NCBI GenBank assembly: GCA_964344965.1
Contig: CAYFPJ010000002.1
Span: 1,068-65,067 of the forward strand
Source: an uncultured Gammaproteobacteria bacterium
Lineage (GTDB): Bacteria > Patescibacteriota > Patescibacteriia > Magasanikbacterales > UBA922
Length of the DNA stretch: 64,000 nt
Direction: 5' to 3'
Part shown: in pieces, positions 25,481 to 46,875 of the stretch
How the letters are laid out: each line of letters starts with the position of its first letter
Numbering within the stretch: position 1 is the stretch's first letter
Translations under genes and position numbers: made by a program
The notes under the pieces: generated by a model
What the model saw: the letters and a program-made list of their open reading frames with translations, nothing else
The model's database searches: none
Told to the model about the DNA's origin: nothing

Positions 25481-25518
25481 ATGTACGAAATTACGAACGT
25501 TACGAAATTTGCGAAACG
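25481..25518 (-). repeat. TTTCGTA-type 8-9-bp tandem repeat array (4 units), oriented toward the 25034..25441 gene
   Basis: The minus strand reads TTTCGCAAA TTTCGTAACG TTCGTAA TTTCGTACAT. Confidence 0.7.
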
Positions 25519-25526
25519 TTACTACT

Positions 25527-25600
25527 GCGATAGGATTACCGCCGAAAGGCGGTCTCTACGAACGTTGTCTGTGCCGGCCTGCCTTTCGGCAGGAATCCTA
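25527..25600. repeat. GC-rich nested hairpins between the two TTTCG arrays
   Basis: CCGCC-GAAA-GGCGG and CCTGCC-TTTC-GGCAGG enclosed by TAGGATT/AATCCTA. Confidence 0.6.
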
Positions 25601-25612
25601 ATATTTGAACCA

Positions 25613-25649
25613 CTTTCGCACCCTTCGTACTATTCGTAATTCCGTACAT
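25613..25649 (+). repeat. TTTCGTA-type tandem repeat array (4 units), plus orientation
   Basis: CTTTCGCACC CTTCGTACTA TTCGTAATT CCGTACAT. Confidence 0.65.
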
Positions 25650-25678
25650 CATCTTCATACTTTCAATACGTTCACGTA

Positions 25679-28651
25679 CTACACCCTAAACTCACAAATA
25701 TCCCTAAAATCACATCTTCCACAAATAAATTTACTTGGCGTAGCTTCAAACTTTCGTTCGTGAATTTGCTCAATAGTTTTGGCCAATTTTCCTTTTAGCT
25801 TTTCCAGTTCTTTTTCTTTCCCGATGAATGATGTCTTTATATTATCATTTAAATAATAAAATGTTAACTTACTGGTCTCACCCACATGCTTATATTCTGG
25901 CAAAGTGCTAGCCACTATCTGATAAATCAAAAGTTGATCCTTCTCTTTACCAACTAATTTCTCTTTACTTTTTCCAGTCTTGTAATCAACAATTTCAAGA
26001 GTGCCGTCTTCCAGTTTGTCGACCCGATCAATACGGCCGGAAATTGTATAGTCCCCTACTTTTACCTTGAAACCACTTTCAAGAGAGATAGGTACATTCC
26101 AATTCCCTTCTTCAGAAGCATAAAAAACTTTTAGAATTTCTTTTCCTTTCTTATGATAATCTTCTCGCTGGCGTTTGCTCACATACCAGTCACTGATCCA
26201 CTTCTCCTCATATATTTGTAGAAGTTCTTCAAAAGACGGCACTTTGATATTGGAATCTATAAACTTATCAGCCGGTAGACCAAAAAGTGAATCCTGCTTC
26301 AAGCCATTTAATTCCTGAATCCGCTCATAAAATTTTTGCAAAGTATTGTGCATGGTCGAGCCAAAACTAAAGCTAGCACTCCCCTTGGTCGGAATTTTGA
26401 GGACATGCGCCAGCTTATACTGATACGGACAAGTCTGATAAGAACTAATCTGCGAATAAGAAAACCTCTTCGGCAAATCATAGATCACCTCACTTTCCTT
26501 TGTATCTTGAATATCCCTCTGTTGAAAAGATATGGTAACGGGTTCGTCGTTCGTCAGGAGCTTGTCCTGAGCTTGCCGAATGGATCGTTCGTCTCTCATT
26601 CCCAACTCCGCCACGAATCTACTTAATTTGGAAGAGCGTACCCCACCATAACTCTCAGCGCTCGTCAAAAAAAGTCTCTCCTTCGCCCTCGTCATCGCTA
26701 CATAAAACAGCCGTCTCTCTTCTTGATAATGATAGTCCCCTTCTGGCACAGTTTCACGAACAAGTTCTTCTGGCAGCTCAATATTGCCACCTTTGCGACG
26801 AGTAGGAAATCGCCCTTCCACACAGTTGACGACGAAAACATACTTGAATTCCAGACCCTTGGAGGCATGTACTGTCATAATGTTCACAGAGTCTGGTGTA
26901 TCGGTCGGCTGGTAGAGCTTGCCATCATCACCAGAAATGATAATTTGGTTATAAAAATCAACAAATCCAAAAACATTGGCATCCGGAATAGATTCTTGAT
27001 ATTTTTCTACAAATTCAAAAAACTGCTTGAGATGTCTGATCTCTCTTATCGTTTTTCTATCCCCATCTTCTTCTGTCTGCGTGAGGTGAGATAGATATCC
27101 ACTGTTTTCGAGAAACTCAATTAGTACTGTGGTTGGTTTCTCAAATCTGGCTCGCTTCATGCCATGGTGGATTAGTTCGATCAATTTATTACAAATTCCA
27201 ACCCCCTCCTCTGATAGCTTGAATTCTCGAGCCCGCTTCAGACCTTCGTAATATGGAATGCTTTTCTTTTTTGATAAGTACAAAATCTTCTGCATATCAT
27301 TTTCGCGCATTCCAAAAAATGGTAAACGAAGAAGGCGGTAGACTGCCACAGAATCATGAAAGTCAGCCAGCACTTTAAAAAAATTAAAGCAATCCATCAC
27401 AATCGGCTGGCGATACAATCCAGAAGAAGCCAAAAATTCGTATGGAATACCTGATTGTTCAAGGCCTTGGATAAACGGACTAGCATGACTATTGGCTCGG
27501 ACGAGGATAGCAACATCATCCCACACAAACTCTTTATCTTCTTTTTGCAATTTCAAAATTTCACTAACAACAGATCTGACTTCGCTTTCTAAATTAAGTT
27601 CATTAACATGCAAAACTGATGGTTGGGAACTATATTCTCCTGATTCTTTATTCCTAATTCCTGATTCTAGTCTCTTATCAATATCAAGCTTCACCTCAAG
27701 ACGATCCGGATTATTATTCTGAATAAGCTGGTAAGCAGAATCAAGGATCTTCTGATTGGAGCGATAATTTTCTGTTAGCACTATTTCTTTTCCTTTTGGA
27801 AAGTCATCTTTGAATCTAAGGATATTGGAAACACTGGCTCCACGAAAGGCATAAACAGACTGATCATCGTCCCCGACCACAGTGAGCTGACTATTGCCAG
27901 CCAGCAATTTTACCAGCTCATACTGAGCATAGTTGACGTCTTGAAATTCATCAACCAGAATATATTTAAATCTTTTTTGCAAACTTTCTAAAATTAATTT
28001 CCTTTTTTTGAGTAGTCCTACTGTATAAAAAATTAGATCGCCAAAGTCTAACGCATTATGCCTGAGCAGAAGCTGATTGTAGCTGTGATAAGCATTGGCG
28101 AGCTCTGCTATCTTGCTTTTCTCTTCTTCGGCATTGTCATGATCTAGTTGTAAATTTTTGGCATATTCCAGATATTCTGCCGGACTGATCAGCTCGTCTT
28201 TACATTTGGAAAAATGAGAGATAAGGGCATAGATATTACGACTGGGATTTCCAAGTGGGCGATAATAATCAAGGTTGAAATCATACAAATTTTCTTTCAT
28301 CAGAAGCCAGGCATCTGTCCCTGTCATTAGTTTGAACTGATTTGGTAAACCCACATCAAGACCATAATTCTCCAAAATATTTTGGCAAAAAACATGAAAA
28401 GTAGAAATCTGTAAATCTAGGTAACCAATATCAAGGAGCACATCAACCCGCTCCTGCATCTCTTCTGCTGCTTTGTCTGTAAAAGTAAGGGCGAGAATCT
28501 CTTCTGGTTTCACTCCTTTTTCCTTTACCAAATAACTAATCTTCTTGGTAATCACAGTCGTCTTCCCAGTCCCCGCTCCAGCAACAATAAGAAGAGGACC
28601 GCCGACATATTCGACGGCCTGTTTTTGTGATTTATTGAGTTTTTTTGTCAT
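25679..28651 (-). CDS. UvrD/PcrA-like superfamily-1 helicase fused to a C-terminal PD-(D/E)XK Cas4/AddB-like nuclease domain
   Basis: N-terminal helicase motifs (GAGTGKT, VDEFQD, TVHASKGLEF). The C-terminal region carries the nuclease motifs and a Cys cluster (CPYQYK...CGRCDFRDIC). Confidence 0.8.
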   Translation of the reverse strand: MTKKLNKSQKQAVEYVGGPLLIVAGAGTGKTTVITKKISYLVKEKGVKPEEILALTFTDKAAEEMQERVDVLLDIGYLDLQISTFHVFCQNILENYGLDVGLPNQFKLMTGTDAWLLMKENLYDFNLDYYRPLGNPSRNIYALISHFSKCKDELISPAEYLEYAKNLQLDHDNAEEEKSKIAELANAYHSYNQLLLRHNALDFGDLIFYTVGLLKKRKLILESLQKRFKYILVDEFQDVNYAQYELVKLLAGNSQLTVVGDDDQSVYAFRGASVSNILRFKDDFPKGKEIVLTENYRSNQKILDSAYQLIQNNNPDRLEVKLDIDKRLESGIRNKESGEYSSQPSVLHVNELNLESEVRSVVSEILKLQKEDKEFVWDDVAILVRANSHASPFIQGLEQSGIPYEFLASSGLYRQPIVMDCFNFFKVLADFHDSVAVYRLLRLPFFGMRENDMQKILYLSKKKSIPYYEGLKRAREFKLSEEGVGICNKLIELIHHGMKRARFEKPTTVLIEFLENSGYLSHLTQTEEDGDRKTIREIRHLKQFFEFVEKYQESIPDANVFGFVDFYNQIIISGDDGKLYQPTDTPDSVNIMTVHASKGLEFKYVFVVNCVEGRFPTRRKGGNIELPEELVRETVPEGDYHYQEERRLFYVAMTRAKERLFLTSAESYGGVRSSKLSRFVAELGMRDERSIRQAQDKLLTNDEPVTISFQQRDIQDTKESEVIYDLPKRFSYSQISSYQTCPYQYKLAHVLKIPTKGSASFSFGSTMHNTLQKFYERIQELNGLKQDSLFGLPADKFIDSNIKVPSFEELLQIYEEKWISDWYVSKRQREDYHKKGKEILKVFYASEEGNWNVPISLESGFKVKVGDYTISGRIDRVDKLEDGTLEIVDYKTGKSKEKLVGKEKDQLLIYQIVASTLPEYKHVGETSKLTFYYLNDNIKTSFIGKEKELEKLKGKLAKTIEQIHERKFEATPSKFICGRCDFRDICEFRV

Positions 28652-28656
28652 AAGTT

Positions 28657-28696
28657 ATGTGCGAAATTACGAAAGCTGCGAAATGTACGAAAAAAA
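28657..28696 (-). repeat. TTTCGTA-type tandem repeat array (4 units) ending 5 nt before the helicase-nuclease ATG
   Basis: The minus strand reads TTTCGTACA TTTCGCAGC TTTCGTAA TTTCGCACAT AACTT ATG. Confidence 0.7.
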
Positions 28697-28760
28697 CTTA
28701 ATCTATTCTATATAATCCTAGCACAATTATGTTGCCTTAACAATTCCAACAACAAACAAA

Positions 28761-28796
28761 TTTCGTAACTTTCGTACTGTTCGTAATTTCGCACAT
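28761..28796 (+). repeat. TTTCGTA-type tandem repeat array (4 units), upstream of the hup promoter
   Basis: TTTCGTAAC TTTCGTACTG TTCGTAA TTTCGCACAT. Confidence 0.7.
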
Positions 28797-28828
28797 AAAT
28801 CATCCTGTGGACAAATATTTTGGCTCTA

Positions 28829-28858
28829 TTGACACAAATATGCATTATCAAGTATAAT
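28829..28858 (+). promoter_or_regulatory. candidate sigma70-type promoter of hup
   Basis: TTGACA -18 nt- TATAAT, lying 40 nt upstream of the hup ATG. Confidence 0.45.
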
Positions 28859-28897
28859 TCCTATAGAAAATAAGTAATTAGTGTAATCAATGTTTAT

Positions 28898-29224
28898 ATG
28901 TCTAAACTCAATAAAGCTGCTCTAGCGGATGCCATCTCTTCAAAGGTAGGTGTCTCAAAAAAAGAAGCCGAAGCCATGCTCGAAGCCTTTGTCCAGATCG
29001 TCACTACTACTCTCCAGGCCAATGACGAAGTTACTATTGCTGGCTTCGGAGCCTTCAGCGCCAAGATGCGTGCTGGCCGGATCGGAGTCAATCCTCAAAA
29101 CCCAAGCCAGAAAATCCAAATCCCACCAGTAAGAGTACCGAAGTTCAAAGCTGGAAAGGGATTGAAAGATGCTCTCAAAAAGAAAAAAGAGGAAGAAGCA
29201 GTGGAAGCTCCTCCAATGATGTAA
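28898..29224 (+). CDS. hup: HU/IHF-family DNA-binding protein with a K/A/P-rich C-terminal extension
   Basis: MSKLNKAALADAIS...GFGAF...RNPQT-like HU fold, plus the tail KFKAGKGLKDALKKKKEEEAVEAPP. Confidence 0.85.
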   Translation: MSKLNKAALADAISSKVGVSKKEAEAMLEAFVQIVTTTLQANDEVTIAGFGAFSAKMRAGRIGVNPQNPSQKIQIPPVRVPKFKAGKGLKDALKKKKEEEAVEAPPMM

Positions 29225-29235
29225 ACACATTTCAA

Positions 29236-29268
29236 ACAAAAAAATCCTGATGCTTATCGGGATTTTTT
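29236..29268 (+). terminator. rho-independent terminator of hup
   Basis: AAATCCTGA-TGCTTA-TCGGGATTT followed by a T-run. Confidence 0.7.
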
Positions 29269-29332
29269 GTTCCATATTTGTCATCCTGAGCGCAGCGAAG
29301 GATCTTTAGCAAGGAAGACATTCTCTAAGCCA

Positions 29333-29358
29333 AAAACCGCCTAATCAGGCGGTTTTAT
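29333..29358 (-). terminator. rho-independent terminator downstream of tRNA-Met
   Basis: The minus strand reads AAAACCGCCTGATTAGGCGGTTTTT. Confidence 0.75.
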
Positions 29359-29360
29359 TG

Positions 29361-29434
29361 TGTCAGAGGTGGGGATTGAACCCACGACCTTAGCGTTATG
29401 AGTGCTACGCTCTAACCAACTGAGCTACTCTGAC
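29361..29434 (-). tRNA. tRNA with CAT anticodon (Met; an initiator or lysidine-Ile2 identity is not excluded); CCA not encoded
   Basis: Manual fold: acceptor GTCAGAG/CTCTGAC, D-arm GCTC-AGTTGGTTA-GAGC, anticodon loop CTCATAA, T-arm GTGGG-TTCAATC-CCCAC. There is an A-C mismatch at positions 31-39. Confidence 0.8.
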
Positions 29435-29549
29435 CGGGCTCCATTTTCGCTTCGCTCAAATTATGCCCGGCAGGCCCGGGGCTTTCTGGGCAAAAAAATA
29501 ATAATTGGCCTGCCCGGCGCAATCACGACAGAGTCGGGATGGAGACGGG

Positions 29550-29621
29550 TAGCCCCAAGGGGAATCGAACCCCTGTTCCCAGGATGAGAACCTGGTGTCC
29601 TAACCACTAGACGATGGGGCC
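29550..29621 (-). tRNA. tRNA-Glu (anticodon CTC); CCA not encoded
   Basis: Manual fold: acceptor GGCCCCA/TGGGGCT (G1-U72), anticodon stem CCAGG/CCTGG with loop TTCTCAT, T-arm GGGG-TTCGATT-CCCC. Confidence 0.8.
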
Positions 29622-29818: not shown

Positions 29819-29823
29819 AAAAA

Positions 29824-35175: not shown

Positions 35176-35835
35176 TTAATTCAAAAATTTACCAAAAAAC
35201 AAATCTTTCAAAACTTTCAAACCACCCACCGCTCGTTGTCCATATTCATGATACGTCACTTTGACTGGAAATTCAATATATTTCAAACCATGCCGTTTTA
35301 TCAATTCAGGAATCTCTGAAGCATGAGCCATCCTGTCTTGTTTAATTCTAATTTTATCAAGAGCATTTTTATTCAAAATACGAAAGCCATTATGGACATC
35401 AGTGAGCTTTATCCCCCCAAAAGCACGACTGACCAATCTACCAAGTGGCAATAAAATATGTTTTTTGAACCAAGGAATACGAGAACGGTCATCCAAAAAA
35501 CGAGAACCAAGTAAAACATCCGCCTCCTTCTCTCTCATTTTCTGTAATGCTGGGTTGATATCCAAAGCATCAAATTGATTGTCACCATCAAAATGAAGTA
35601 CATATTCTGCTCCATGCTTTCTTGCATATTCATGACCTGTCTCCAGAGTAGCCCCTTGGCCACGATTGATCTTGTGCCGTATCACCACAGCTCCAGCCTC
35701 TCTAGCTTGCTTTCTCGTACCATCCTTGGAACAATCATCTACAACAACAATCTCATCAACATGTCCAAAAAGGCTCCGCACAACGGAACCTATTCTTTCT
35801 TCTTCATTATATGCCGGAACTATAGCAAGAAACAT
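35176..35835 (-). CDS. GT2-family glycosyltransferase (polyprenyl-phosphate sugar synthase-like)
   Basis: AIVPAYNEEERI...VVDDCSKDGT and the DGD motif (HFDGDNQ). Confidence 0.85.
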   Translation of the reverse strand: MFLAIVPAYNEEERIGSVVRSLFGHVDEIVVVDDCSKDGTRKQAREAGAVVIRHKINRGQGATLETGHEYARKHGAEYVLHFDGDNQFDALDINPALQKMREKEADVLLGSRFLDDRSRIPWFKKHILLPLGRLVSRAFGGIKLTDVHNGFRILNKNALDKIRIKQDRMAHASEIPELIKRHGLKYIEFPVKVTYHEYGQRAVGGLKVLKDLFFGKFLN

Positions 35836-35903
35836 ATTTCAAAATACACCAATTAAGCCAGAGCAGTTAACTACCATATGAGAGGTAAATAATTCCAATT
35901 CAA

Positions 35904-35957
35904 AAGTGTTTAAGTGTTTAAGTGTTTAAGTGCTAAAGTGCTAAAGTGCTAAAGTGC
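35904..35957. repeat. AGTGYTTAA/AGTGCTAAA octamer tandem repeats (3+3 units) directly after the epimerase stop codon
   Basis: (AGTGTTTA)x3 (AGTGCTAA)x3 AGTGCC; as RNA this is (CACUUUAG)x3 (CACUUAAA)x3 and is G-poor. Confidence 0.8.
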
Positions 35958-35962
35958 CAAAA

Positions 35963-36973
35963 TCACGTCATCATCTCCTTATTGGCAATAGTATAGTTGA
36001 TGGTCCTCTTCAGACCATCATCAATCCTAATCAATGGAATCCATCCTAACCCTTCTTTAGCGCGAGTCAGATCTGGCATTCCTTTGGCAGTAAGAAACTC
36101 TAATGGGTCTTCAAATACCACTCTAGAATTGGAACCTGTCATAGCAATAATCTTTTCAGCAATAGCAGACATCTTATGGATTTCATCATGACCCAAATTT
36201 ACTAAGTATATCTCAGGACCAGCATGCATCAGGCGAACCAATCCGTCAACAGTATCTGAGACAAAACAAAGTGACTGGACAAGCGTATCATCACCATAGA
36301 TCACCAGGTCCCGCCCGTCAAGTGCATCTAGGATAAAATCTGGTATCAAGAGACCATCACGAAGCTTCATACGCGGTCCGTAAGTAGTGAAAACTCTGGC
36401 AATTTTAGCATCAAGACCATAAACTTGTCTATAGGTCTCGACACAAGTCTCAGCAAACCTTTTTCCCTCATCATAAGAGCCTCTTGGAGAGAGGTGATTG
36501 ACCTGACCTTCGTCAGACTCAGTAAAAAACCTTTTTTCTGGAGAGGAGGGACCATAGACTACAGAGCTGGAAGTGAAAACATACTTGGAGCGATACTTTA
36601 CAGCCAGATCTAGAGTGTTGAGCATTGCCCTAGAGTTGGCATGCAAGGAGTGTAGTTTTAAATCTTCAAAATTCTTAGGGCTGGTAGGACAAGCCAAATG
36701 ATAAATTTCTTGTATACCTTGAAATTTCAATTTGAATTTTTCTAACTCTGGAAAATCTTTTAGATCAATAGGAAAATTTACGTCATACTTTATAAATTCA
36801 AAGTCAGGATATTGCAACAGATGTTCAACATTTTGGATAGTAGAATTGGACAGATCATCCATACAAATCACATTGGCTTCTCTCAAAAGACGCTCACATA
36901 GATGAGACCCTAAGAAGCCAGCCCCACCAGTCACTAAGACATTTTTCTTTTCAAAAATAGGTGTTTGATCCAT
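35963..36973 (-). CDS. NAD-dependent epimerase/dehydratase (UDP-glucuronate decarboxylase / UXS-like)
   Basis: VLVTGGAGFLGSHL Rossmann motif and a YxxxK-containing SDR core; overall UXS-like. The match is to the family only. Confidence 0.65.
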   Translation of the reverse strand: MDQTPIFEKKNVLVTGGAGFLGSHLCERLLREANVICMDDLSNSTIQNVEHLLQYPDFEFIKYDVNFPIDLKDFPELEKFKLKFQGIQEIYHLACPTSPKNFEDLKLHSLHANSRAMLNTLDLAVKYRSKYVFTSSSVVYGPSSPEKRFFTESDEGQVNHLSPRGSYDEGKRFAETCVETYRQVYGLDAKIARVFTTYGPRMKLRDGLLIPDFILDALDGRDLVIYGDDTLVQSLCFVSDTVDGLVRLMHAGPEIYLVNLGHDEIHKMSAIAEKIIAMTGSNSRVVFEDPLEFLTAKGMPDLTRAKEGLGWIPLIRIDDGLKRTINYTIANKEMMT

Positions 36974-36980
36974 AACATCA

Positions 36981-39005
36981 CTAATTATAAACAGGTGCAG
37001 AAATTAAATTAATATCATTCTGCTTTGTAAAAAAATATTTCTGATCAATTTTTTTTCCAAATTTATCCCAAACACGTGCCGGTTGTCCTCCACCTCTTGG
37101 TATTGCAAACAAATCATCTTCTCCATCATTGTCATAATCTCCGACAGCAAAAGAAAAAGATTTTTTATAGGATCCGTAAGCTAAAAACTTTCTTATTACA
37201 CTACCGTCATCATCATAAAAAACAATCATTGGTCGCTCTCCATCTCCACCTCCTACCACATATTCAAGATTATCATCTTTATCCAAATTAATCGTAGCAA
37301 TTGGACCAATTTTAGAAAAAGATTCAACCAAAAAACTTTCTAAAACCTCTCCATCTCCTGTAATTTTTTCTAATATTAGATTGGAGTCAGCCTCATACAA
37401 CACCACTATGTCATACTTATTGCCTGATTTTGAAAAAGATCTAGAGACAGAAACTCCGTTATGCTTAGAATCTAACTTATGCACATATTTTTCTTCACCT
37501 GTCAAAGAATAAATACTAAATACTGTGTTACTAGACTCCTGTGGCACTATCACTATCTCAAATTCTTTGTCGTCCATCACTTGAATCACTTCCAGACTGA
37601 CTTTTCCGGAAGGGGAGATAATAAAACTATCTTCTCTCTCCCATTGAGAATTGTAAATACTAATTCTTGTCCTCTTGCTATCAAAAGGCTTGGCTGTGAC
37701 AAAAAAAGTTTTACCAGCATATTGATATGAATCAAAGTCATCAATACCAGATAGAGAAATTTCTTTATTGATTATATTTTCTCCTTCTGATTTTAGATCC
37801 CAAGATTCACTATCACCACCAATATTATCTAAAATAAAAATATTTCTTAATGGCCTATTGTTGACAAACTTTTCTAAAGCATAATTTACAGCCTTGTCTA
37901 TTTGCAAAAGACCAGCCCCAAACAGATTGGCGTATATTTCTTCATCTTGACCAGGTGTATGGTGGGTGGTAGATAGGAGGGCTTTATAAATATTTTTTGG
38001 ACCCCAACTTGGTTGGATGCTCTTGATTAATGCTGCCGCACCACTGACCAAGGGGGTGGAAAATGAGGTGCCATTCCAACCTTTCATATACTTTTCCTTA
38101 AGACCATATTTGGGAGAATAACGTACTGTGCTGGCCAAATCCTCTCCAGGAGCTGTGATGTCAATGCAATCTGAACCAATATTAGAAAAGTTAGCAATAT
38201 TATGATTTTTATTGATTGCACTTACTCCAATAATTTTATTTACCTTTTCCCCAGCATCAATACAGATCGGATAGGTGGGATAATCATTCAGATTATAATA
38301 ATTGTTACCAGCTGCTGCGACCATGGCTACTCCATTTTTGTAAGCATAATCCACAGCCTCTTCTATACCTGAAGTGATATCTCCCACTACACTCATGTTT
38401 ATGATATCAGCACCATTATCCACCGCATAGTAGATAGCATTGTGAAGTTTGGCAAAAGAACCAATACCATCCTCATCAACTACACGAAGGTTCATCAATT
38501 TTACATTTGGACTTACACCCGAACCATTCTTCCCATTATCCCCAACAGCTCCAATAATCCCAGCAACCACAGATCCATGATGTACTATTCCGGCATCTTT
38601 TTCGCTTTGAGTCAATTTGTCTACTCTCGGCCGTGGATTGTTATTTCCTTTTTCTTCTTCTTTGCTTATTTTTCTATCTCCGTCAGTGTCTTCTGGAACA
38701 AAACTCCATCCCCAGACATCATCTACATACCCATTGTTGTCATCATCCAAATTATTATTTGGTATTTCTGCTTTATTTTTCCAGGCATTCTTCCTTAAAT
38801 CGGGATGAAATGTGTCAAACCCATTATCAATTACAGCTACCACCACATCTTTTGAGCCCAAAGTATAATCCCAGGCTTTGTACACATTTGTATCAGCATA
38901 AGCCCATTGTTCGACAAAAGGATCATTCAGTTTTTTTGCCTCGACCACTTCGAAAAACAAAAAAGAGAGAGATGCGTAAATTAAAATTAATACAAAATTT
39001 TTCAT
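36981..39005 (-). CDS. secreted subtilisin-like S8 serine protease with C-terminal FG-GAP/beta-propeller-like repeats
   Basis: Signal peptide. Catalytic triad in VAVIDNGFD, HGSVVAGIIGA and GTSFSTPLVSGAAAL. The C-terminal region has DNDGEDD-type repeats. Confidence 0.85.
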   Translation of the reverse strand: MKNFVLILIYASLSFLFFEVVEAKKLNDPFVEQWAYADTNVYKAWDYTLGSKDVVVAVIDNGFDTFHPDLRKNAWKNKAEIPNNNLDDDNNGYVDDVWGWSFVPEDTDGDRKISKEEEKGNNNPRPRVDKLTQSEKDAGIVHHGSVVAGIIGAVGDNGKNGSGVSPNVKLMNLRVVDEDGIGSFAKLHNAIYYAVDNGADIINMSVVGDITSGIEEAVDYAYKNGVAMVAAAGNNYYNLNDYPTYPICIDAGEKVNKIIGVSAINKNHNIANFSNIGSDCIDITAPGEDLASTVRYSPKYGLKEKYMKGWNGTSFSTPLVSGAAALIKSIQPSWGPKNIYKALLSTTHHTPGQDEEIYANLFGAGLLQIDKAVNYALEKFVNNRPLRNIFILDNIGGDSESWDLKSEGENIINKEISLSGIDDFDSYQYAGKTFFVTAKPFDSKRTRISIYNSQWEREDSFIISPSGKVSLEVIQVMDDKEFEIVIVPQESSNTVFSIYSLTGEEKYVHKLDSKHNGVSVSRSFSKSGNKYDIVVLYEADSNLILEKITGDGEVLESFLVESFSKIGPIATINLDKDDNLEYVVGGGDGERPMIVFYDDDGSVIRKFLAYGSYKKSFSFAVGDYDNDGEDDLFAIPRGGGQPARVWDKFGKKIDQKYFFTKQNDINLISAPVYN

Positions 39006-39014
39006 ATCTATTTA

Positions 39015-40577
39015 TTATAATGGATGTAAACTGTTATTTTTACCAAGCAATGTTGGATATTTTATATTTTCAGTACCCGCTTTTATAGATCCTTTAGATT
39101 TCAACTTCATGCCAATGGCTGAAGAGCCATAAATTACAAATTTTTTATGAAAATTATTCGAAGAAAATACTTTTCCACCTATATTTCCAGAAATTGCATA
39201 AAACAAGTCATCAATGTATTGGTAATATATTTGATTTTTGTTTGGATGCTTTACAACAGAACCTCGAGGATACTGATAGCCGGCACTGCTAAAAATTTCT
39301 AAACCAGAAAGAAGGTTCCCGGATAGTGCATCCGCCAAATCACTAAAGCCATTGCCAGTAGTGTCTTTTATATCCGGATCTGTAAACCAATAAAAAATTT
39401 CCTCATGGTCAGTAAGGCCATCACCATCAGAATCGTGTTTCAAATCACTTGTGCCATATTCCTTTTCTGTTTCACTGTCTACTCCATCGTGATCCTTGTC
39501 GACAATATCTTTATCTCCCACATCATAGCTTCTAATCTGATAAAAGCTACTCTGTGATGATTCCAAAGTGATTACTCTTTTGTCCCAATTGTTACCATAT
39601 AGGAGCTTAGCTTCTACCTCTGAACGGATTGGTCGCAATTGACATCCCGGCTCTGGTGCATATACTTTTGGAGAATGGTCAAAACTTACCAACCAAGTCC
39701 CAGCCCTAACACAAATAGGCTTCCCAACCAAATATTGACTAATCTTCGGATTACTAACATAAAAGATATTAGAAATGCTATCATACCAAGAATGCAAAAC
39801 TGCCGGATGAGAAAAGGGATGAATATAACCATCAAATCCCAAATAATATATTGGAGTGTTCTTACCCTTTATCAAGCTACCTTCTGGAATATAAGTAGGA
39901 GATTGATTATATTGAATTGTCTTGCTAATTATTTTTGTTTTGCCATCAGCATCTTTGAATTGCATGTAAACTTTTTTCTGTCCACTACCGGCAGAAAGCA
40001 TCCAAGATATTTTCTTGGTGATAGGCATAAAATCAAATAAAGAAAAATCCTCTTGGTTGCTCACAAATATTGACTCGACACTTTTTGAAAAACTGATATC
40101 AAGAGAAACAGAACGAGAATCTGTCTCCTCATCACCATCATTGATAATAAAATTAACTTCCATGTTTTCTGGTACAGACAAGGTGATGGTATCCTTGTAT
40201 ATTTTTTCTTCGTCAGCATCACCTCCTTTAAACTTAATATAAACAGTTTTTGTACCCTTGCCATAATCCAGATACCATTTTTTTGTTTTAGCATAAGATT
40301 CCCAGTCTATATTATCAAAATCAAGTTTATTAGAAATTTTCATTTTCTTGGTACCATCTGGGGCAGAAATATAGAGAGTCACCTTACGGACAGAAGTTTC
40401 AGATTTATTTTTATTTATATTAAAATAAATATCTGAGGAAGCACTTTGAACTGTCTCAAAAAATACAAGCAATACTACCAACAAACAGAGAGTAGCCAAG
40501 AGAATAATGTGGTGTTGATTTTTTAGCCTAAATAACATATAATCTCGATAGAAGTATACTAAAAAATTGGCCCTCAT
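39015..40577 (-). CDS. secreted or membrane-anchored hypothetical protein with calcium-binding DxDxDG (TSP3-like) motifs
   Basis: N-terminal TM segment and DKDHDGVDSE...DSDGDGLTDHEE. Its start overlaps the divergent gene's start, so one of the two starts is probably miscalled. Confidence 0.4.
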   Translation of the reverse strand: MRANFLVYFYRDYMLFRLKNQHHIILLATLCLLVVLLVFFETVQSASSDIYFNINKNKSETSVRKVTLYISAPDGTKKMKISNKLDFDNIDWESYAKTKKWYLDYGKGTKTVYIKFKGGDADEEKIYKDTITLSVPENMEVNFIINDGDEETDSRSVSLDISFSKSVESIFVSNQEDFSLFDFMPITKKISWMLSAGSGQKKVYMQFKDADGKTKIISKTIQYNQSPTYIPEGSLIKGKNTPIYYLGFDGYIHPFSHPAVLHSWYDSISNIFYVSNPKISQYLVGKPICVRAGTWLVSFDHSPKVYAPEPGCQLRPIRSEVEAKLLYGNNWDKRVITLESSQSSFYQIRSYDVGDKDIVDKDHDGVDSETEKEYGTSDLKHDSDGDGLTDHEEIFYWFTDPDIKDTTGNGFSDLADALSGNLLSGLEIFSSAGYQYPRGSVVKHPNKNQIYYQYIDDLFYAISGNIGGKVFSSNNFHKKFVIYGSSAIGMKLKSKGSIKAGTENIKYPTLLGKNNSLHPL

Positions 40578-41967
40578 GCAATTATTTTATAGGATTAGAC
40601 AGTTAATTCTACTAGCTGGAGACATGATTGTCTTCATTTTTGCGTTTTGGATCAGTCTGGCAGTAAGGTATTTCCAAATTCCAGCTTGGGAAATTGTTTT
40701 GCAAAATATAGTGGTATTACCCGTCCTCTTACTGATTTGGATAGTTTTAAACTATATAAATGGTCTTTACGACTTAGTCAAATATAGCGATATTAAAAAT
40801 TTTTCAAAAAGAATACTGGAAACATCTGTTGTTTCTCTGGTTGTCAGCATTATATTATTTTATATCATTCCCCAAAAAGATCTCACACCAAAAACAATTC
40901 TGGTGCTGGCTGTATTTTTTGGTTACAGTTTTGCATTTTTGTGGAGGCTATTATACAGTCAAATCATTGGCAACAAGGGACTGAAAGAGAAAATACTATT
41001 TGTTGGACATAGTAAAGAAATGGATGAGCTGGTGGATATAATTACCAAACTCCCTCAAAGAGGTTATGAAGTGTGTGTTTGGGTGGATCCAGAAAAAAAC
41101 ATAAAAAAAGAAAAGTGTGAAAAAATTGAAGTATATGAAAGATTACAGACCATAAGACCCGCCATAACCAACCATCATATTAGTACTATAGTGATTGCCC
41201 CTCACTTGCGGTACGAAGAGAAAGTACTTCGAGAATTATATGAATTGTTATTTTGGGATGTACGAATTATGGACATGGCCTCATTTTATGAAGCAATCAC
41301 TGGTCGTATTCCTCCTTCTACTTTTTCAGAAGGGTGGTTTTTGGATCATATTGGTAATAATGATTTACCAGTCTATCAAAAAATAAGAGTAGTCTTAGAC
41401 TATATAACTGCTATAATGCTTGGTCTTTTGTTTTTAATTCTTTTTCCTCTAATTACTCTTGGAATCAAGGCCACTTCCAGAGGCCCAATATTTTTTAAAC
41501 AAAGAAGAGTAGGAAAATATGGCGAGCATTTTCTGTTGTACAAATTCCGTTCCATGTACTCCTTGGCAGAAGATGGCAGTGCTGAAACAGAAGGTGCTCA
41601 ATTTGCCAAAAAAAACGATAAGCGAGTTACTCCTTTTGGAAAATTCTTAAGAAAAACTAGACTGGACGAACTACCACAATTCATAAACATACTCAAGAGA
41701 GATATCACTCTCATTGGACCACGTCCAGAAAGACCAGAAATAGTGCAACAATTGGAAGAAAAAATGCCTTATTATTCACTACGTCACATCATTGAGCCTG
41801 GTTTGACTAGCTGGGCAGTACTTCACCAAAACTATACTGATACACTGGAAACTTCTTTGCAAAAGCTGCAGTACGATTTATATTATATAAAAAATAGGTC
41901 ATTTTTGCTTGACCTATCTATCTTGCTCAAAACTATCAACCTGGTCGTCAGGGGGATGGGTCAATGA
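40567..41967 (+). CDS. polyprenyl-phosphate hexose-1-phosphate transferase (WbaP/CpsE-like bacterial sugar transferase)
   Basis: N-terminal TM segments, then a C-terminal PF02397-type domain (RGPIFFKQRRVGKYGEHFLLYKFRSM...DELPQFINILKRDITLIGPRP). Confidence 0.85.
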   Translation: MALMQLFYRIRQLILLAGDMIVFIFAFWISLAVRYFQIPAWEIVLQNIVVLPVLLLIWIVLNYINGLYDLVKYSDIKNFSKRILETSVVSLVVSIILFYIIPQKDLTPKTILVLAVFFGYSFAFLWRLLYSQIIGNKGLKEKILFVGHSKEMDELVDIITKLPQRGYEVCVWVDPEKNIKKEKCEKIEVYERLQTIRPAITNHHISTIVIAPHLRYEEKVLRELYELLFWDVRIMDMASFYEAITGRIPPSTFSEGWFLDHIGNNDLPVYQKIRVVLDYITAIMLGLLFLILFPLITLGIKATSRGPIFFKQRRVGKYGEHFLLYKFRSMYSLAEDGSAETEGAQFAKKNDKRVTPFGKFLRKTRLDELPQFINILKRDITLIGPRPERPEIVQQLEEKMPYYSLRHIIEPGLTSWAVLHQNYTDTLETSLQKLQYDLYYIKNRSFLLDLSILLKTINLVVRGMGQ

Positions 41968-41991
41968 CGATAGTTACAAATTACTAGTTAA

Positions 41992-42140
41992 AATAAAAGT
42001 AAATTTGGTTTAAGTAAGACTTCATCGGGCCATCCCCGCAGCAAGCTGCGGGGTATTGGCAGAAAATCTTATTTCAACCAATGTTAGTTTTCACTTTTTC
42101 GATGCAAGCATCGAGGAATAAAACCGCTTAAAGATTAAAA
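41992..42140 (+). repeat. 149-nt structured repeat, copy D
   Basis: Full-length match to the other copies; lies between convergent genes. Confidence 0.9.
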
Positions 42141-42178
42141 ATAAAATGCCCAAATTTAAATTGGGAATTTTATTTTTA
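42141..42178. terminator. bidirectional terminator hairpin
   Basis: CCCAAATTTAAATTGGG flanked by A/T runs, between convergent genes. Confidence 0.6.
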
Positions 42179-42230
42179 ATTTGAAACTAGCTTTCAATCG
42201 TGGTCTCAAGTCAAAAGGAAATTCTGAAAT

Positions 42231-43166
42231 TTAGTCTATTCCCCATTCTTTTTTCAACTCTTTAATCCCATCTTCTAGCGTGATTGTAGGCTCCCATCCG
42301 AGGAGTTCTTTTGCTTTTGTGATATTGGCTTCTGTATATCGGACATCCCCTGGTCTCTCATCAACATTTACAAAGTCTCCACCAATCATTTTCACAATGT
42401 CATTTACTGAGTTAGGATTGTTGTTGCCAATATTGATAGTCTCACCTTTACCGACACTACTCTTTGTCATGGCAAGGATATTGGCACGCACTACATCTGA
42501 AACATGGGTATAGTCACGATAATACTCTCCGTCACCACAGACGGTCATCGACTCGCCATTCTTGACTTGCTGTAAAAACTTAGCAATAACAAGAGCATAA
42601 GCACCATTGGGGTCTGCGTATGGTCCATAGACATTAAAGTACACTAATGACACTGTCTCTAGTCCATACAAATCTGCAAACTGACGACAATAGTGCTCAC
42701 CAATCAATTTATGTAAAGCATAAGGAGCAATCGGTAGTTTGTTAATTTTGTCTTCTACTAGTGGATAAGCCTCTCTAGGCTGATCGCCATAAGTAGATGA
42801 GGAGGATGAAAAAACAACTCGCTTCACACCAGCATCTCTAGCAGCAAGAAGGACATTCAAAGTACCGTTGACATTGGTGTTATGAGTTTCTTGAGGATGC
42901 TCAACAGAATATGTCACTCTAGGAAGGGCAGCCATGTGAAATACTCCATCGACTCCTTCCATAGAAGGAAGCAATATATCCATATCTCGAATATCCCCTT
43001 CAATATATTCCACACCGTCCTGGATTCTTTCTTCTTTTTTGCCACCAGCGTAGTTGTCTATCACTTTTACATCGTGACCTTCTGCCAGAAGTTGTTTGGC
43101 CAAATTTGTACCGATGAAGCCAGCGCCGCCGGTTATTAAATATTTCATAAATACTACAATGTCCAA
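42231..43166 (-). CDS. UDP-sugar 4-epimerase of the GalE/WbpP family (likely start at 43148, MKYLITGG...)
   Basis: ITGGAGFIGTNL and the YxxxK core. Overlaps the dehydrogenase gene by 13 nt, suggesting an operon. Confidence 0.75.
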   Translation of the reverse strand: MDIVVFMKYLITGGAGFIGTNLAKQLLAEGHDVKVIDNYAGGKKEERIQDGVEYIEGDIRDMDILLPSMEGVDGVFHMAALPRVTYSVEHPQETHNTNVNGTLNVLLAARDAGVKRVVFSSSSSTYGDQPREAYPLVEDKINKLPIAPYALHKLIGEHYCRQFADLYGLETVSLVYFNVYGPYADPNGAYALVIAKFLQQVKNGESMTVCGDGEYYRDYTHVSDVVRANILAMTKSSVGKGETINIGNNNPNSVNDIVKMIGGDFVNVDERPGDVRYTEANITKAKELLGWEPTITLEDGIKELKKEWGID

Positions 43167-44458
43167 TAATTAATGTCTATATTTTCTATCTCATTTTTGG
43201 TGTATAACTTTTTTATATCTACCAAAAGTAAATTATCATGATTCATCATATCTTTCAACTGATCAAAAGTCAAAGATCTAAATTCATCATGAGCAACAGC
43301 TACGATCAGTGTATCTGCCTTTGGTAAATCTTCTTTTTTGGTTAGTTCTATTCCATATTCCCTTTTCACTTCTTCTTGGTCTGCGTATGGATCACAAACT
43401 ACAGGAATAATTCCAAAATTTTTCAATTCATTATACATTTCAGCTACTTTTGAATTACGTACGTCAGGAATGTTCTCTTTGAAAGTAATACCTAAAATAA
43501 CAATGTTTGATTTTTGCATATCCTTCCCCATTCCAACCATTTTCTTGATAATTTGATGGGCAACAAACTTATGAAAACTATCATTGATACCACGTCCAGC
43601 CAAAATAACTTCTGGATTATGCCCCACTTCTCGAGCTTTGTATGTCAAGTAATATGGATCTACACCAATACAATGACCACCAACAAGTCCAGGTTTGAAT
43701 GGAAGAAAATTCCATTTTGTATTTGCAGCGTCCAAGACATCGTACACACTAATGTCCATTTTATTAAACAGAATTGCCAACTCATTCATAAGGGCGATGT
43801 TGATATCTCTTTGGGTGTTTTCAATAGCTTTGGCTGCTTCTGCTACTTTTATGGAAGATGCTTTGAATGTATTTGTGATTGTACCATATACTTCAGACAT
43901 GAGATTGACTGAATCTTCATCCATACCGGCCACAACTTTGATAATTTTATCAATAGTATGCTCTTTGTCGCCAGGATTGACTCTTTCTGGAGAGTATCCT
44001 ATTTTGAAATCAATACCAGCCTGAAGACCAGACTGATTTTCCAAAACAGGTAAACAAATATCTTCTGTAACACCAGGATAGACAGTCGATTCATAGACTA
44101 CCACTGAATCTTTTGTTAAATTTTTACCGACCATTTCAGTGGCTTTTTTCAAAATTGATAAATCTGGAATTTTATTTTCATCTATTGGAGTTGGAACAGA
44201 TACGATAATAAACTTTGAGTTACTGATCTCTGTCTGGTCGTCGGTATAATGAATATGAGAAACTGTCAAATCTTTATCATTTACCTCCCCTGTTTTGTCT
44301 GTTCCGTCTTTCAAATCATTTATTCTAAGAGAGTTGATATCAAAGCCAATAACATCAAAATGTTTGGAAAATAAAACTGCGAGCGGTAAGCCTACATATC
44401 CTAGTCCGACGATACAAACTTTTTCTTTTTTTGATTGTAAATCTTTAAAATTGATCAT
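43154..44458 (-). CDS. UDP-N-acetyl-D-glucosamine 6-dehydrogenase (WbpA/TviB/WecC family)
   Basis: N-terminal VCIVGLGYVGLPLA and overall nucleotide-sugar dehydrogenase architecture. Paired with the WbpP-like epimerase, as in the UDP-GalNAcA pathway. Confidence 0.8.
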   Translation of the reverse strand: MINFKDLQSKKEKVCIVGLGYVGLPLAVLFSKHFDVIGFDINSLRINDLKDGTDKTGEVNDKDLTVSHIHYTDDQTEISNSKFIIVSVPTPIDENKIPDLSILKKATEMVGKNLTKDSVVVYESTVYPGVTEDICLPVLENQSGLQAGIDFKIGYSPERVNPGDKEHTIDKIIKVVAGMDEDSVNLMSEVYGTITNTFKASSIKVAEAAKAIENTQRDINIALMNELAILFNKMDISVYDVLDAANTKWNFLPFKPGLVGGHCIGVDPYYLTYKAREVGHNPEVILAGRGINDSFHKFVAHQIIKKMVGMGKDMQKSNIVILGITFKENIPDVRNSKVAEMYNELKNFGIIPVVCDPYADQEEVKREYGIELTKKEDLPKADTLIVAVAHDEFRSLTFDQLKDMMNHDNLLLVDIKKLYTKNEIENIDINYWTL

Positions 44459-44464
44459 AGAAAA

Positions 44465-45298
44465 TCAAAAAATCATCAATATAACCCCAATGACAAGTAA
44501 TAATAAAAAAATAATTTTTGTGAGTATGGTTCTTTCTTTAAAGTAGACATAACCTGACAAAAGTGACCATGATATACTAAAAGATCTCTTGGCAGCAATA
44601 ATTACTGAAGCTGGGGCAAACAAAAAAGCAAAACTAGCAAATACAGTAGAAAGACCACTACTTAAAGACTGGAAAAAAAAGATTGGTTTTTTCAAGAATA
44701 CAAACGGATTTTCCTTCTTTCTAACCATAGCCATAATAAAAAAGTAAATTAATAGAACAAAAATTGTAATAGACTGTTCAGCTTCCACAGAATTGAAGTA
44801 GGTTATATTATACTTAAACAAGGAGAGAGTTGCAACAGCATTGACGGCAGTAAAAAGTACTAGCCATCTCCCTTTTTTCTTCATCTTATTGTTTAGAAAT
44901 ATCAAAATAACAACAATAAATATCAAACTAATGCCAATAAACTGAAAAGTACTAATACTATACCCCAAAACAACATCTACAAAAAGTAGTAGTGGAATGG
45001 TCAGAGTCCTGATAAAGCTGAAAGTGGTCCTGTCTGCTGTCACTATGGCCCAAATAGTCACATGGGCCTGGAGGACCTCTAGGAATAACTTGGGTACAAA
45101 AGTGGGTAGAGAAGAGACAGAAAATAAAAATTCTCCTCTAAAAAAAGAAATCAACAGAAAGAAAAGAAAGGAGAAAAAAAAGATCAAAAAACCCATAGTG
45201 TAGAGGCTCTCCTCTTTAGCCTCTACTTTCTTTTTTCCCAAACTATCAGAAAACTCCTGAAAAAAAGTGCCTACAAATGTAAGGAATATTCCAAACAT
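44465..45298 (-). CDS. polytopic integral membrane protein of unknown function
   Basis: ~9 predicted TM segments; no family motif. Confidence 0.4.
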   Translation of the reverse strand: MFGIFLTFVGTFFQEFSDSLGKKKVEAKEESLYTMGFLIFFFSFLFFLLISFFRGEFLFSVSSLPTFVPKLFLEVLQAHVTIWAIVTADRTTFSFIRTLTIPLLLFVDVVLGYSISTFQFIGISLIFIVVILIFLNNKMKKKGRWLVLFTAVNAVATLSLFKYNITYFNSVEAEQSITIFVLLIYFFIMAMVRKKENPFVFLKKPIFFFQSLSSGLSTVFASFAFLFAPASVIIAAKRSFSISWSLLSGYVYFKERTILTKIIFLLLLVIGVILMIF

Positions 45299-45305
45299 AA
45301 ATATC

Positions 45306-45442
45306 TAACGAGTAGTGTGAATTAATTTTCACAATTGGCTGAATTGAACTATTTTTGAAGCGAGGACTGTTTGAGCGAAGCGAGTTTCGCAGCGAAAAAA
45401 TAGCTCAATTCAGACAAAAAAATTAATTCACACTACTCGTTA
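45306..45442. repeat. 137-nt element with perfect 24-bp terminal inverted repeats (MITE-like long hairpin)
   Basis: TAACGAGTAGTGTGAATTAATTTT...AAAATTAATTCACACTACTCGTTA. A nested second inverted repeat and GCGAAG/GCGAAA repeats lie inside. Confidence 0.8.
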
Positions 45443-45443
45443 T

Positions 45444-46835
45444 CTATTGTCGTCCTACCAAAAATGGGCTGCCTACTGCTACTATATCAAATCCAGCCTT
45501 ATTCAAATCACCATAACGATGCTGCAACATCCTCCGTCCATCCATGATGAGAGGTTTATCTCCTTGACACTCTTTCGAGAGTAAATCTGCTAGCCCTCGA
45601 AATTGTGGCCAATCTGTGGAGATAATCACCACATCAGCATTTTCTATTGCTTTTTCCTCTTCTGTGGAATAGACAATTTGATCAGAAGCTGGAAACTGTT
45701 GTCTAAACATGGGTACAGCGACAGGATCAAATATTTGAATTTTTCGGACATTTTTTTCTTGTAGAAATCGAACTATATCAATACTTGGTGAATTACGAAT
45801 ATCATTGGTATCTTGTTTGAAAGCAGTACCCATTATTGCGACAGTCTTTCCTGACCAGTCCAGCTCTGCTTCTTTTTCTGCTCTATTCAAAAATAATTCT
45901 AATTGTCGTTTGTTGGCTAGATAGACTTCACTAACTAGCGAGGCACTCTGTCCAGCAGTCTGTAGCTGATGAGCCAAAGAACGCGCATCCTTGATAAAAC
46001 AGCTACCTCCAGCATAAAGGCTGTCATAAAATCCCCAGCCTGAAATCCTAGACTCTGTAGTGATGACTTTCCGCAAATTCTCAAATTGAACATCTGAAAA
46101 CGTCTCGCTGGTACGACCAATGACATCAAAACAGAGTTGTAATTTTGCAAATAAATAAAAATTTGCCAGTAGTTTTCCTGCTGCTGCTTCTTTTGGATTA
46201 ACTTCGATGTAAGCAATACCAGAAGAATCATAAAATCGGCGATACAGTTGGCGCATCACCTGGAAATCCTTTTCTTCCCAAGCACCGACCACCACCCGAT
46301 CAGGATGAAGTGATCCTTCGATCGCTTTTCCCTCTACCAGGAATTCGGGGTTAGATACTACGCCATAATTTTTTACCCCAGACTCGTCCATGATACGCTT
46401 GGTCTCATCAACCATCTCTACCGGCACAGTACTTTTGTTGACGATTACAATATATTTTTCTTGTTTCCCTTTATTTCTCTTGGTCAAAGCTTGAGATAGC
46501 TGCTCGGCAGCCATATTGTAATACTTGAGGTCACTCTCCCCTGTCTCACCAATTTCTGGGGTAGGCAGGCACATCAATATGATATCACACTGGTCAAGAA
46601 AATTTTCAACTTTGCCATAGTCTGTCGTGAACTCGATACGTTCCTTATTGCGGATCAAAAGATCAGCCAGACCTTCTTCAAATAGGCAGGACTGAATAAT
46701 ATCTCGATCATTTGAGCCGAGTTTTTTTATTTTATTTTCATCGATGTCATAGACCAGAACCTGGTGGCCGCTGTCAGCCGAGACTGCTGCTGAGCAGGCT
46801 CCCACAAAGCCAGATCCGATGTAGAGAATGTTCAT
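45444..46835 (-). CDS. ugd: UDP-glucose 6-dehydrogenase
   Basis: NILYIGSGFVGACSA Rossmann motif and catalytic-Cys region (GGSCFIKD); full length. Confidence 0.85.
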   Translation of the reverse strand: MNILYIGSGFVGACSAAVSADSGHQVLVYDIDENKIKKLGSNDRDIIQSCLFEEGLADLLIRNKERIEFTTDYGKVENFLDQCDIILMCLPTPEIGETGESDLKYYNMAAEQLSQALTKRNKGKQEKYIVIVNKSTVPVEMVDETKRIMDESGVKNYGVVSNPEFLVEGKAIEGSLHPDRVVVGAWEEKDFQVMRQLYRRFYDSSGIAYIEVNPKEAAAGKLLANFYLFAKLQLCFDVIGRTSETFSDVQFENLRKVITTESRISGWGFYDSLYAGGSCFIKDARSLAHQLQTAGQSASLVSEVYLANKRQLELFLNRAEKEAELDWSGKTVAIMGTAFKQDTNDIRNSPSIDIVRFLQEKNVRKIQIFDPVAVPMFRQQFPASDQIVYSTEEEKAIENADVVIISTDWPQFRGLADLLSKECQGDKPLIMDGRRMLQHRYGDLNKAGFDIVAVGSPFLVGRQ

Positions 46836-46838
46836 AAT

Positions 46839-46875
46839 TATGTACGAAATACGAAAAATTCGAAAATTACGAAAA
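46839..46875 (-). repeat. TTTCGTA-type tandem repeat array (4 units) ending 4 nt before the ugd ATG
   Basis: The minus strand reads TTTTCGTAA TTTTCGAAT TTTTCGTA TTTCGTACAT AATT ATG. Confidence 0.7.

Follow-up and report, generated by a model that had tools for sequence, protein, structure and literature searches.

Phased hexamer arrays in Candidatus Magasanikbacteria as probable ends of a miniature mobile element associated with a GxxExxY nuclease gene

Miniature inverted-repeat transposable elements (MITEs), together with their parent insertion sequences, and the Correia elements of Neisseria are small elements with terminal inverted repeats that are present in many copies, lie beside genes and may carry an outward promoter. 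The ends of Mu and Tn7 carry multiple subterminal transposase-binding repeats (the MuA site consensus contains CGAAA), and Rickettsia palindromic elements are insertions of 100-150 bp that lengthen the protein. A further described system consists of doublets of repetitive extragenic palindromic (REP) sequences, termed REPINs, and REP-associated tyrosine transposases, termed RAYTs (PMC3116915, PMC3337134). Here we examine a stretch of 64,000 nucleotides from contig CAYFPJ010000002.1 of assembly GCA_964344965.1 (the whole stretch is referred to below as the window), which holds five arrays of phased TTCG(T/C)A hexamers. With a probability of roughly 0.6, we interpret these arrays as the terminal inverted repeats of a REPIN/MITE-like family of selfish elements in Candidatus Magasanikbacteria and related Patescibacteria, whose full-length members would carry the gene for a GxxExxY nuclease.

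As proposed, an end of this element would measure some 36-40 bp and comprise four phased hexamers, a tip reading ...ACAT and a weak A-n-n-T flank. Two such ends, tips outward, around a single GxxExxY / PD-(D/E)XK_3 gene of 136-150 amino acids would make up a full-length element of about 0.5 kb, most copies would be gene-less doublets of about 80 bp, and some would be solo ends. The window is best read as containing two gene-less doublets (25481-25649 and 28657-28796) and one solo end (46840-46875), the first doublet representing a non-autonomous copy.

Arrays of the window and their distribution

The window holds exactly five arrays, each of four TTCG(T/C)A hexamers spaced 8-9 bp apart (9/9/8 or 8/9/8) and each ending in ...TTTCGYACAT. 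They are grouped into two back-to-back pairs and one solo array:

25481-25518, minus strand: array A1, four TTCGYA units ending ...TTTCGTACAT, tip at 25481, left arm of doublet 1 (profile E=5.4e-09)
25519-25612, no strand: core of doublet 1, two GC hairpins, no open reading frame (ORF) for the GxxExxY protein
25613-25649, plus strand: array A2, last unit degenerate (TTCCGTACAT), tip at 25649, right arm of doublet 1 (profile E=4e-04)
25481-25649, no strand: doublet 1, inverted pair with tips outward, 169 bp, arms 81% complementary over 36 nt
28657-28696, minus strand: array A3, tip at 28657, left arm of doublet 2 (profile E=5e-08)
28761-28796, plus strand: array A4, tip at 28796, right arm of doublet 2 (profile E=2.3e-10)
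28657-28796, no strand: doublet 2, inverted pair with tips outward, 140 bp, between the divergent helicase-nuclease and hup genes
46840-46875, minus strand: array A5, solo, one unit TTCGAA and the last spacing 7 nt, tip at 46840 (profile E=3.5e-03)

With one mismatch allowed, the two-unit pattern TTCGYANNNTTCGYA matches the window 10 times against 0.70 expected from shuffles, and all 10 matches fall inside the five arrays. Arrays account for 17 of the 49 TTCG[TC]A hexamers in the window, and a profile built from 48 arrays recovers the same five and otherwise yields a single noise match (E=9.1) in the 64 kb. An earlier sequence-only reading of the window had placed the arrays correctly save for one boundary (the last begins at 46840, not 46839), and both of its mirror pairs are present. 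The GC-hairpin cores that it ascribed to these pairs are confined to 25519-25612, where hairpins at 25538-25553 (ACCGCCGAAAGGCGGT) and 25578-25593 (CCTGCCTTTCGGCAGG) are together closed by TAGGATT/AATCCTA (25531-25537 / 25594-25600); the 64-bp core of doublet 2 (28697-28760) is AT-rich and has neither hairpin nor ORF. Its 9/9/8 spacing describes part of the arrays only. As a separate observation, a GC hairpin of the form CCTGCC-N4-6-GGCAGG lies within or beside arrays in three genomes (25578-25593 in the window, 6281-6385 in locus L010 and 4741-4928 in L020), and in the latter two it separates adjacent hexamers of one arm, in the manner of a nested insertion.

The same reading gave start-codon distances that we confirm: the A1 tip is separated by 39 nt from the ATG (25441) of a 135-amino acid acidic ORF (25034-25441), the A3 tip by 5 nt from the ATG (28651) of a UvrD/PD-(D/E)XK helicase-nuclease (25679-28651), and the A5 tip by 4 nt from the ATG (46835) of ugd. 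The helicase and ugd start codons are supported because the Pfam domains of both proteins begin at residues 1-5. The remaining two arrays are placed differently, with A2 facing the stop codon of the convergent helicase-nuclease gene across a gap of 29 nt and A4 lying 32 nt upstream of a perfect TTGACA-N18-TATAAT promoter of hup (28829-28858), whose -35 element that reading had predicted. No partner array for A5 was found in the 344 nt behind it.

Arrays of this type are widespread in one group of bacteria. An exact scan with TTCGYANNNTTCGYANNTTCGYACAT returned 39 loci in species-representative genomes, nearly all of them metagenome-assembled genomes (MAGs) of Candidatus Magasanikbacteria, Parcubacteria or Paceibacter, and a metagenome scan returned 78. 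A scan of viral contigs gave no array match, and a phage origin was rejected on these grounds. After a profile search and de-duplication the collection comprised 148 distinct arrays in 86 loci, almost all from Candidatus Magasanikbacteria and related Patescibacteria. The upstream unit, which the scan left unconstrained, is also conserved, so four units are the norm; spacer bases vary. The window genome is itself Magasanikbacteria-like, its helicase being 80% identical to that of the MAG PFPK01, and identical copies of window genes were found in runs of project PRJEB17505. Our literature search on the motif, on promoters of the candidate phyla radiation (CPR) and on GxxExxY found nothing relevant.

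Inverted pairs and the gene between them

Close neighbours in opposite orientation have their tips outward without exception (36/36), and 41 tips-outward pairs were found overall, 22 of which measure 77-87 bp from tip to tip. Tips-inward neighbours are few (n=8) and all lie more than 1 kb apart. The cores of the doublets show no sequence conservation, and doublets can sit between convergent genes, as in locus L039.

Several pairs enclose a gene. Four pairs of about 490-520 bp surround homologous ORFs of 136-139 amino acids, three intact and one (L007) frameshifted, and in two further loci (L073 and L099) the same gene lies between arrays; across the gene-bearing loci examined, its product measures 136-150 amino acids and the enclosing pair about 0.5 kb. 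The enclosed ORFs, the only ones in this longer element with the same ends, match GxxExxY (TIGR04256, E=2e-24) and PD-(D/E)XK_3 (PF13366, E=3e-23) and no other Pfam or NCBIfam family. All six close gene copies in the first set of loci, the frameshifted one included, are flanked by arrays, and distant paralogs are not. A protein search returned 113 homologs, mostly from Magasanikbacteria, and in the loci fetched through them (L130, L131, L134 and identical copies) hexamer repeats with tips outward again flank the gene, weakly in L134, and the surrounding housekeeping genes are unrelated from locus to locus. Every distinct locus examined of the array-flanked subfamily is thus flanked, L134 weakly.

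The extent of homology between gene-bearing copies coincides with the array tips: L066 and L103 are 74% identical over a stretch of exactly 495 bp that runs between their CAT tips, and share no homology beyond. Among nine gene-bearing loci, flank likeness was detected by tblastx in one of 36 comparisons (L103-L131, which share AdoHcyase on one side). Their neighbours range from Wzy/radical-SAM genes and type IV secretion system pilins to a Na/Ca exchanger/AdoHcyase and LemA/HtpX, and in all the gene was found in at least 8 unrelated contexts, one copy being a pseudogene. The two arms of gene-bearing copies are identical at 31-34 of 35 positions (89-97%), spacers included, against a mean of 25.7/35 in short doublets.

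Furthermore, hexamer variant and gene lineage change in concert. In JACQQA01 the unit is TTCGCA, with the tip TTCGCATGT, both around the GxxExxY gene and in a nearby 87-bp doublet, and in LCHA01 it is TTCGAA. In a Bacteroidetes MAG (L017) at least 15 tandem (C)ATTCGTAC TTCGTA units (7577-7735) come after a GxxExxY homolog of 45% identity (7134-7505), and a long perfect hairpin lies beyond these units. A GxxExxY copy with TTCGYA...CAT ends of the window type is present in PRJEB17505, the project that holds the window sequence. The window itself contains a single, more distant member of the family:

21965-22345, plus strand: the only GxxExxY (TIGR04256) gene in the window, 29% identical to the array-flanked subfamily, no TTCGYA arrays around it

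Between this paralog and the ATG of the next gene (22352-22398) there are three GTGTAATYC repeats with a 19-bp period.

The GxxExxY motif and the catalytic residues D77, E87 and K89 are invariant in 17 sequences. No relative of solved structure was found by sequence; modelling with AlphaFold (predicted local distance difference test score 90.9) confidently predicts a minimal PD-(D/E)XK nuclease fold, whose nearest known folds are Cas4 (SSO0001), MGME1 and lambda exonuclease. In a 2012 survey of the superfamily PF13366 / TIGR04256 was listed as 'Unknown' (PMC3424549).

As a proposed mechanism, the nuclease may bind the hexamers with one protomer per unit, and the period of 8-9 bp would make successive protomers wind about the helix. 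The enzyme could bring two ends together, cut at the tips, and move or copy the element without target duplication, and gene-less doublets would be mobilised in trans. The sequence-only reading had proposed a phased protein-binding array, which remains plausible in that only the hexamers are conserved, spacers vary and partner arms are not selected to be complementary; the roles that it named (transcription-factor or nucleoid-protein sites, an UP-like element, a 5'-UTR translational element) are not indicated by the comparative data.

Comparison with relatives of the window reveals turnover. L039 is syntenic with window positions 35180-42830; two of its convergent genes have a doublet placed precisely between their stops, at a point where the window shows 264 bp of unrelated sequence. 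The PFPK01 relative has orthologs of A4 and A2 that are decayed, with two A4 hexamers mutated, and A3 is not recognisable at the start of the helicase ortholog (80% amino acid identity). The acidic ORF, whose 135-amino acid product matches nothing in Pfam or NCBIfam, is absent at the PFPK01 helicase-murG junction together with A1 and the hairpin core (25034-25612). In relatives at 62-66% helicase identity no arrays were found in the 23 kb around the helicase.

A number of observations weigh against a mobile element. No direct repeat of 2-8 bp flanks any of 24 pairs or 5 gene-bearing copies, and a TA target duplication fits only part of the copies. Among all 138 loci there is no clean case of a filled and an empty site, the rplW-rplB junction of L031/L034 not being cleanly empty. 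Because neither a target-site duplication nor a clean empty site was found, transposition is not demonstrated. In short doublets the partner arms resemble each other at spacer positions less than random arrays do (0.22 vs 0.36), which calls for an extra assumption such as selection against perfect palindromes. Stop-facing arrays score no worse than start-facing ones (36.0 vs 34.4 bits). In IleRS and Xer, where arrays lie in frame, the linkers are not longer than in homologs and bear no insertion signature, which is not what simple insertion predicts. Between smpB and ssrA the hexamers of both arms of a pair are intact in three species with differing spacers, and a fourth species has an ssrA array; this conservation suggests selection in situ, and so a host function. 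Finally, PD-(D/E)XK_3 is to our knowledge not a transposase family, and a role in mobility is one that we purely infer.

Array tips at gene boundaries and competing explanations

In the full set, 58 arrays face a start on the same strand within 60 nt of the tip, with offsets that peak at 4 (13 cases) and 2 (8) and also include 5 (4), and 52 face the stop of a convergent gene, 22 of them at an offset of exactly 2; both classes include solo arrays. Besides the three window arrays, about 40 end 0-12 nt before a start codon. In four loci the mature 5' end of transfer-messenger RNA (tmRNA) lies at an offset of 4-6 from a tip, and some tips adjoin the T-run of a convergent terminator. The motif scan thus bears out the association with start codons that the sequence-only reading expected, but shows it to be one of several, alongside convergent stops, tmRNA, T-runs and in-frame sites.

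A weak flank preference, CAT-A-n-n-T, is seen also in arrays without an adjacent ORF. The offsets expected from it are the favoured ones (ATG at +2 and +4; stop TTA/CTA at +2), the rare placements being those that break the T, and since this preference alone suffices, it explains the offsets at both starts and stops. Translational coupling behind the stop-nn-ATG spacing is not needed, given that arrays without neighbouring ORFs show the same flank. A mini-ORF (MYEITNSTKLRN...) read from the ATG of the tip on the other strand was also rejected, its lengths being near geometric and a two-fold excess at 12 amino acids reflecting tandem copies. Among 45 solo arrays, a gene boundary adjoins the CAT side in 21 and the inner side in 8; the CAT tip therefore behaves as an outer edge, which fits a tip at the edge of the element and an inner side that faces its interior. 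If copies persist only in the few non-coding nucleotides at gene boundaries, this would account for tips that touch starts, stops, terminators and the tmRNA gene.

Arrays are also found in frame within five genes (IleRS, UvrC, XerC/D, DusB and SufS-like), always antisense to the gene:

L013 3354-3389, antisense: in-frame array
L024 7442-7476, antisense: in-frame array
L011 1757-1792, antisense: in-frame array
L005 6819-6854, antisense: in-frame array
L068 about 1698-1733, antisense: in-frame array

They encode hydrophilic linker peptides such as MYETTNSTKDTK. Two other loci have unusual surroundings. At 5482-5530 of L008 a heat-shock operator, the controlling inverted repeat of chaperone expression (CIRCE; TTATCACTC-N9-GAGTGCTAA), lies 11 nt past an array tip, and the partner array faces groES. 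In L073 tandem 41-nt units (...ACTAGTT-ATG-TACGAA...) occupy 3833-3906, 5471-5589 and 6118-6190, one upstream ORF reads through the array to the TAG of the next unit, and arrays occupy almost all intergenic regions of a surface-polysaccharide gene cluster.

The alternative that survives best, though we regard it as unlikely, is that the array is a compact host promoter, bound by a clade-specific sigma factor or activator and starting transcription 4-5 nt after the CAT to give leaderless or near-leaderless mRNAs and tmRNA. Mirrored copies would then be antisense or divergent promoters, and such activity could coexist with mobility as an outward promoter on the element end. The positions of ATG codons after the tip and of the tmRNA 5' end agree with it, as do the CIRCE operator that follows the array in L008 and the last hexamer, which takes the position of a -10 box. 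The classical triplet at transcription starts is CAT, and TAnnTT, the sequence at unit junctions, conforms to TAnnnT, the minimal -10 pattern. Among window genes Shine-Dalgarno sequences are nearly absent and a TATAAT-like box often stands 6-10 nt ahead of the ATG, which suggests that mRNAs with a short leader or none are common and would make leaderless expression plausible. Upstream of the helicase or the acidic ORF no sigma-70-like site exceeds the scan threshold, a further point in its favour.

The same sigma-70 scan found no -35/-10 hexamers at 16-18 bp spacing within the arrays. The hup gene has its own perfect promoter downstream of A4, the only strong sigma-70 site near the arrays; a sigma-70-like site (TTGAAA-17-TGcTACACT, 46942-46914, minus strand) lies upstream of A5 and ugd; and a below-threshold TTGTTA-N17-TGnTAGGAT, noted by eye upstream of A3, is kept in the relative that lacks A3. 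A promoter would also not be expected to face convergent 3' ends about as often as starts (52 vs 58 arrays, with equal scores), to form doublets between convergent genes (L039), against convergent terminators and within ORFs, or to occur only five times among about 60 genes, and its preferred offsets follow from CAT-A-n-n-T alone. CGTA, contained in the array hexamers, is a typical -10 core of extracytoplasmic function (ECF) sigma promoters; a promoter of this type was rejected, the logo showing no AAC at the -35 position.

Less probable still is a domesticated system, in which the GxxExxY protein has become a host DNA-binding factor, like a RAYT kept by its host in single copy, and binds arrays throughout the genome for purposes such as boundary or insulator formation or recombination control, the sites flanking its own gene serving autoregulation. 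The constant association of gene and arrays, the co-variation of hexamer and gene, the preservation of both-arm hexamers at smpB-ssrA across species and the concentration of arrays in the polysaccharide cluster all accord with this. The invariant catalytic triad, however, suggests an active nuclease rather than a pure binder, the gene recurs in at least 8 unrelated contexts with one copy a pseudogene, and orthologous arrays decay in a close relative.

That a transcribed UUCGUA array beside the AUG recruits or regulates ribosomes, the role in the 5' untranslated region (UTR) which the sequence-only reading had drawn from the abutment of start codons, now appears very improbable. The arrays that end 0-12 nt before starts, a genome without Shine-Dalgarno sequences, and the sigma-70-like sites upstream of A5 and possibly A3, which would place these arrays in 5' UTRs, speak for it. 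Yet the CAT tip abuts convergent stop codons as often and as precisely as starts, half of the arrays run opposite to the neighbouring gene so that their RNA would be the complement, others precede the untranslated tmRNA or sit between convergent genes, and the tips of arrays flanking the GxxExxY gene point away from it. Since some arrays would be transcribed as the complement or not at all, an RNA element upstream of AUG is inadequate, and the orientation statistics largely refute this explanation. Similarly, the pair as an RNA hairpin, RNase III site or terminator was rejected, given the spacer likeness of 0.22 vs 0.36 and pairs with no T-run after them; the low likeness of partner arms makes a selected RNA or DNA hairpin unlikely.

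A signal of the DNA-uptake type, enriched in a naturally competent lineage through biased uptake and recombination, has equally slight prospects: clade-specific arrays with variants between lineages, inverted pairs after genes, permissive coding frames with no length change and turnover by substitution would suit it, but the unit is very long (about 40 bp) and sparse (5 per 64 kb), abutment is directional and involves one end only, doublet length is fixed, and the tie to one gene family with homology bounded by the tips is specific. Tandem interspaced guide RNA (TIGR) arrays have units of 36 nt, each with two spacers of about 9 nt, and adjoin a Tas (Nop-domain) gene (PMC12045711); they were rejected, as the variable positions here are only 2-3 nt long and the arrays are scattered, with no Tas gene beside them.

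Two observations concern other features. A 20-bp perfect palindrome, CCCCGCAGCAAGCTGCGGGG, occurs five times in intergenic DNA of the window with 0 expected (4242-4261, 18619-18638, 20099-20118, 42034-42053 and 47870-47889) and is a second REP-like repeat family in the same genome, unrelated to the arrays. In L005, a Parcubacteria BM521 contig, Rfam identifies a group I intron (3-363) overlapping a tRNA gene.

Significance and comparison with described systems

Reading the arrays as ends of a mobile element gives the orphan family PF13366 / TIGR04256 a concrete functional hypothesis. More broadly, and only tentatively, since we would put it somewhat below even odds, the widespread GxxExxY / PD-(D/E)XK_3 proteins may be the mobilising enzymes of an unrecognised, REPIN-RAYT-like class of miniature transposable elements, in which a nuclease of restriction-endonuclease fold would replace the HUH transposase and recognise each end by its four phased hexamers. 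In CPR bacteria these ends might also act as outward, near-leaderless promoters of housekeeping genes and tmRNA. If so, an enzyme of nuclease fold would join the short list of proteins that move bacterial DNA. The arrays also show that even the strongly reduced CPR genomes hold a persistent population of intragenomic repeats. Such arrays will mimic regulons or promoters in motif searches, and as they replace the native leaders of core genes, effects on expression need direct testing.

Among larger elements, Mu and Tn7 resemble the present arrays in having several phased, inverted sites per end, in a tip of the form TGT.../...ACA and in the CGAAA of the MuA consensus; their sites are about 22 bp long, whereas the units here are 6 bp at a period of 8-9 bp, and the element is 20-100 times smaller and lacks a DDE enzyme. 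Rickettsia palindromic elements are likewise selfish repeats found in frame within coding genes and beside RNA genes, but the in-frame arrays here span about 36 bp and leave linker length unchanged. MITEs and Correia elements share the terminal inverted repeats, a length of 80-170 bp, the many copies, a longer relative that has the same ends and a single gene, and a position right beside genes with a possible outward promoter. They differ in that here there is no target-site duplication, no DDE, serine or tyrosine transposase, and no sequence common to all copies other than the hexamers.

The closest known parallel is REPIN-RAYT, from which the present family differs in enzyme fold and in repeat architecture. 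Its transposase is of the HUH Y1 (IS200/IS605-like) type, in place of which we find a predicted PD-(D/E)XK_3 / GxxExxY nuclease; its unit is a palindromic REP hairpin, whereas each arm here has four direct hexamers; and the partner arms described here are not selected to pair, their spacer complementarity being below background. In its organisation the family nevertheless corresponds closely to that system (PMC3116915, PMC3337134): both consist of short, non-coding inverted doublets with a short spacer, dispersed between genes and accompanied by single units, both are associated with a small gene that is itself flanked by the repeats, lineage-specific repeat variants track the gene in both, and inheritance is apparently largely vertical, with slow turnover.

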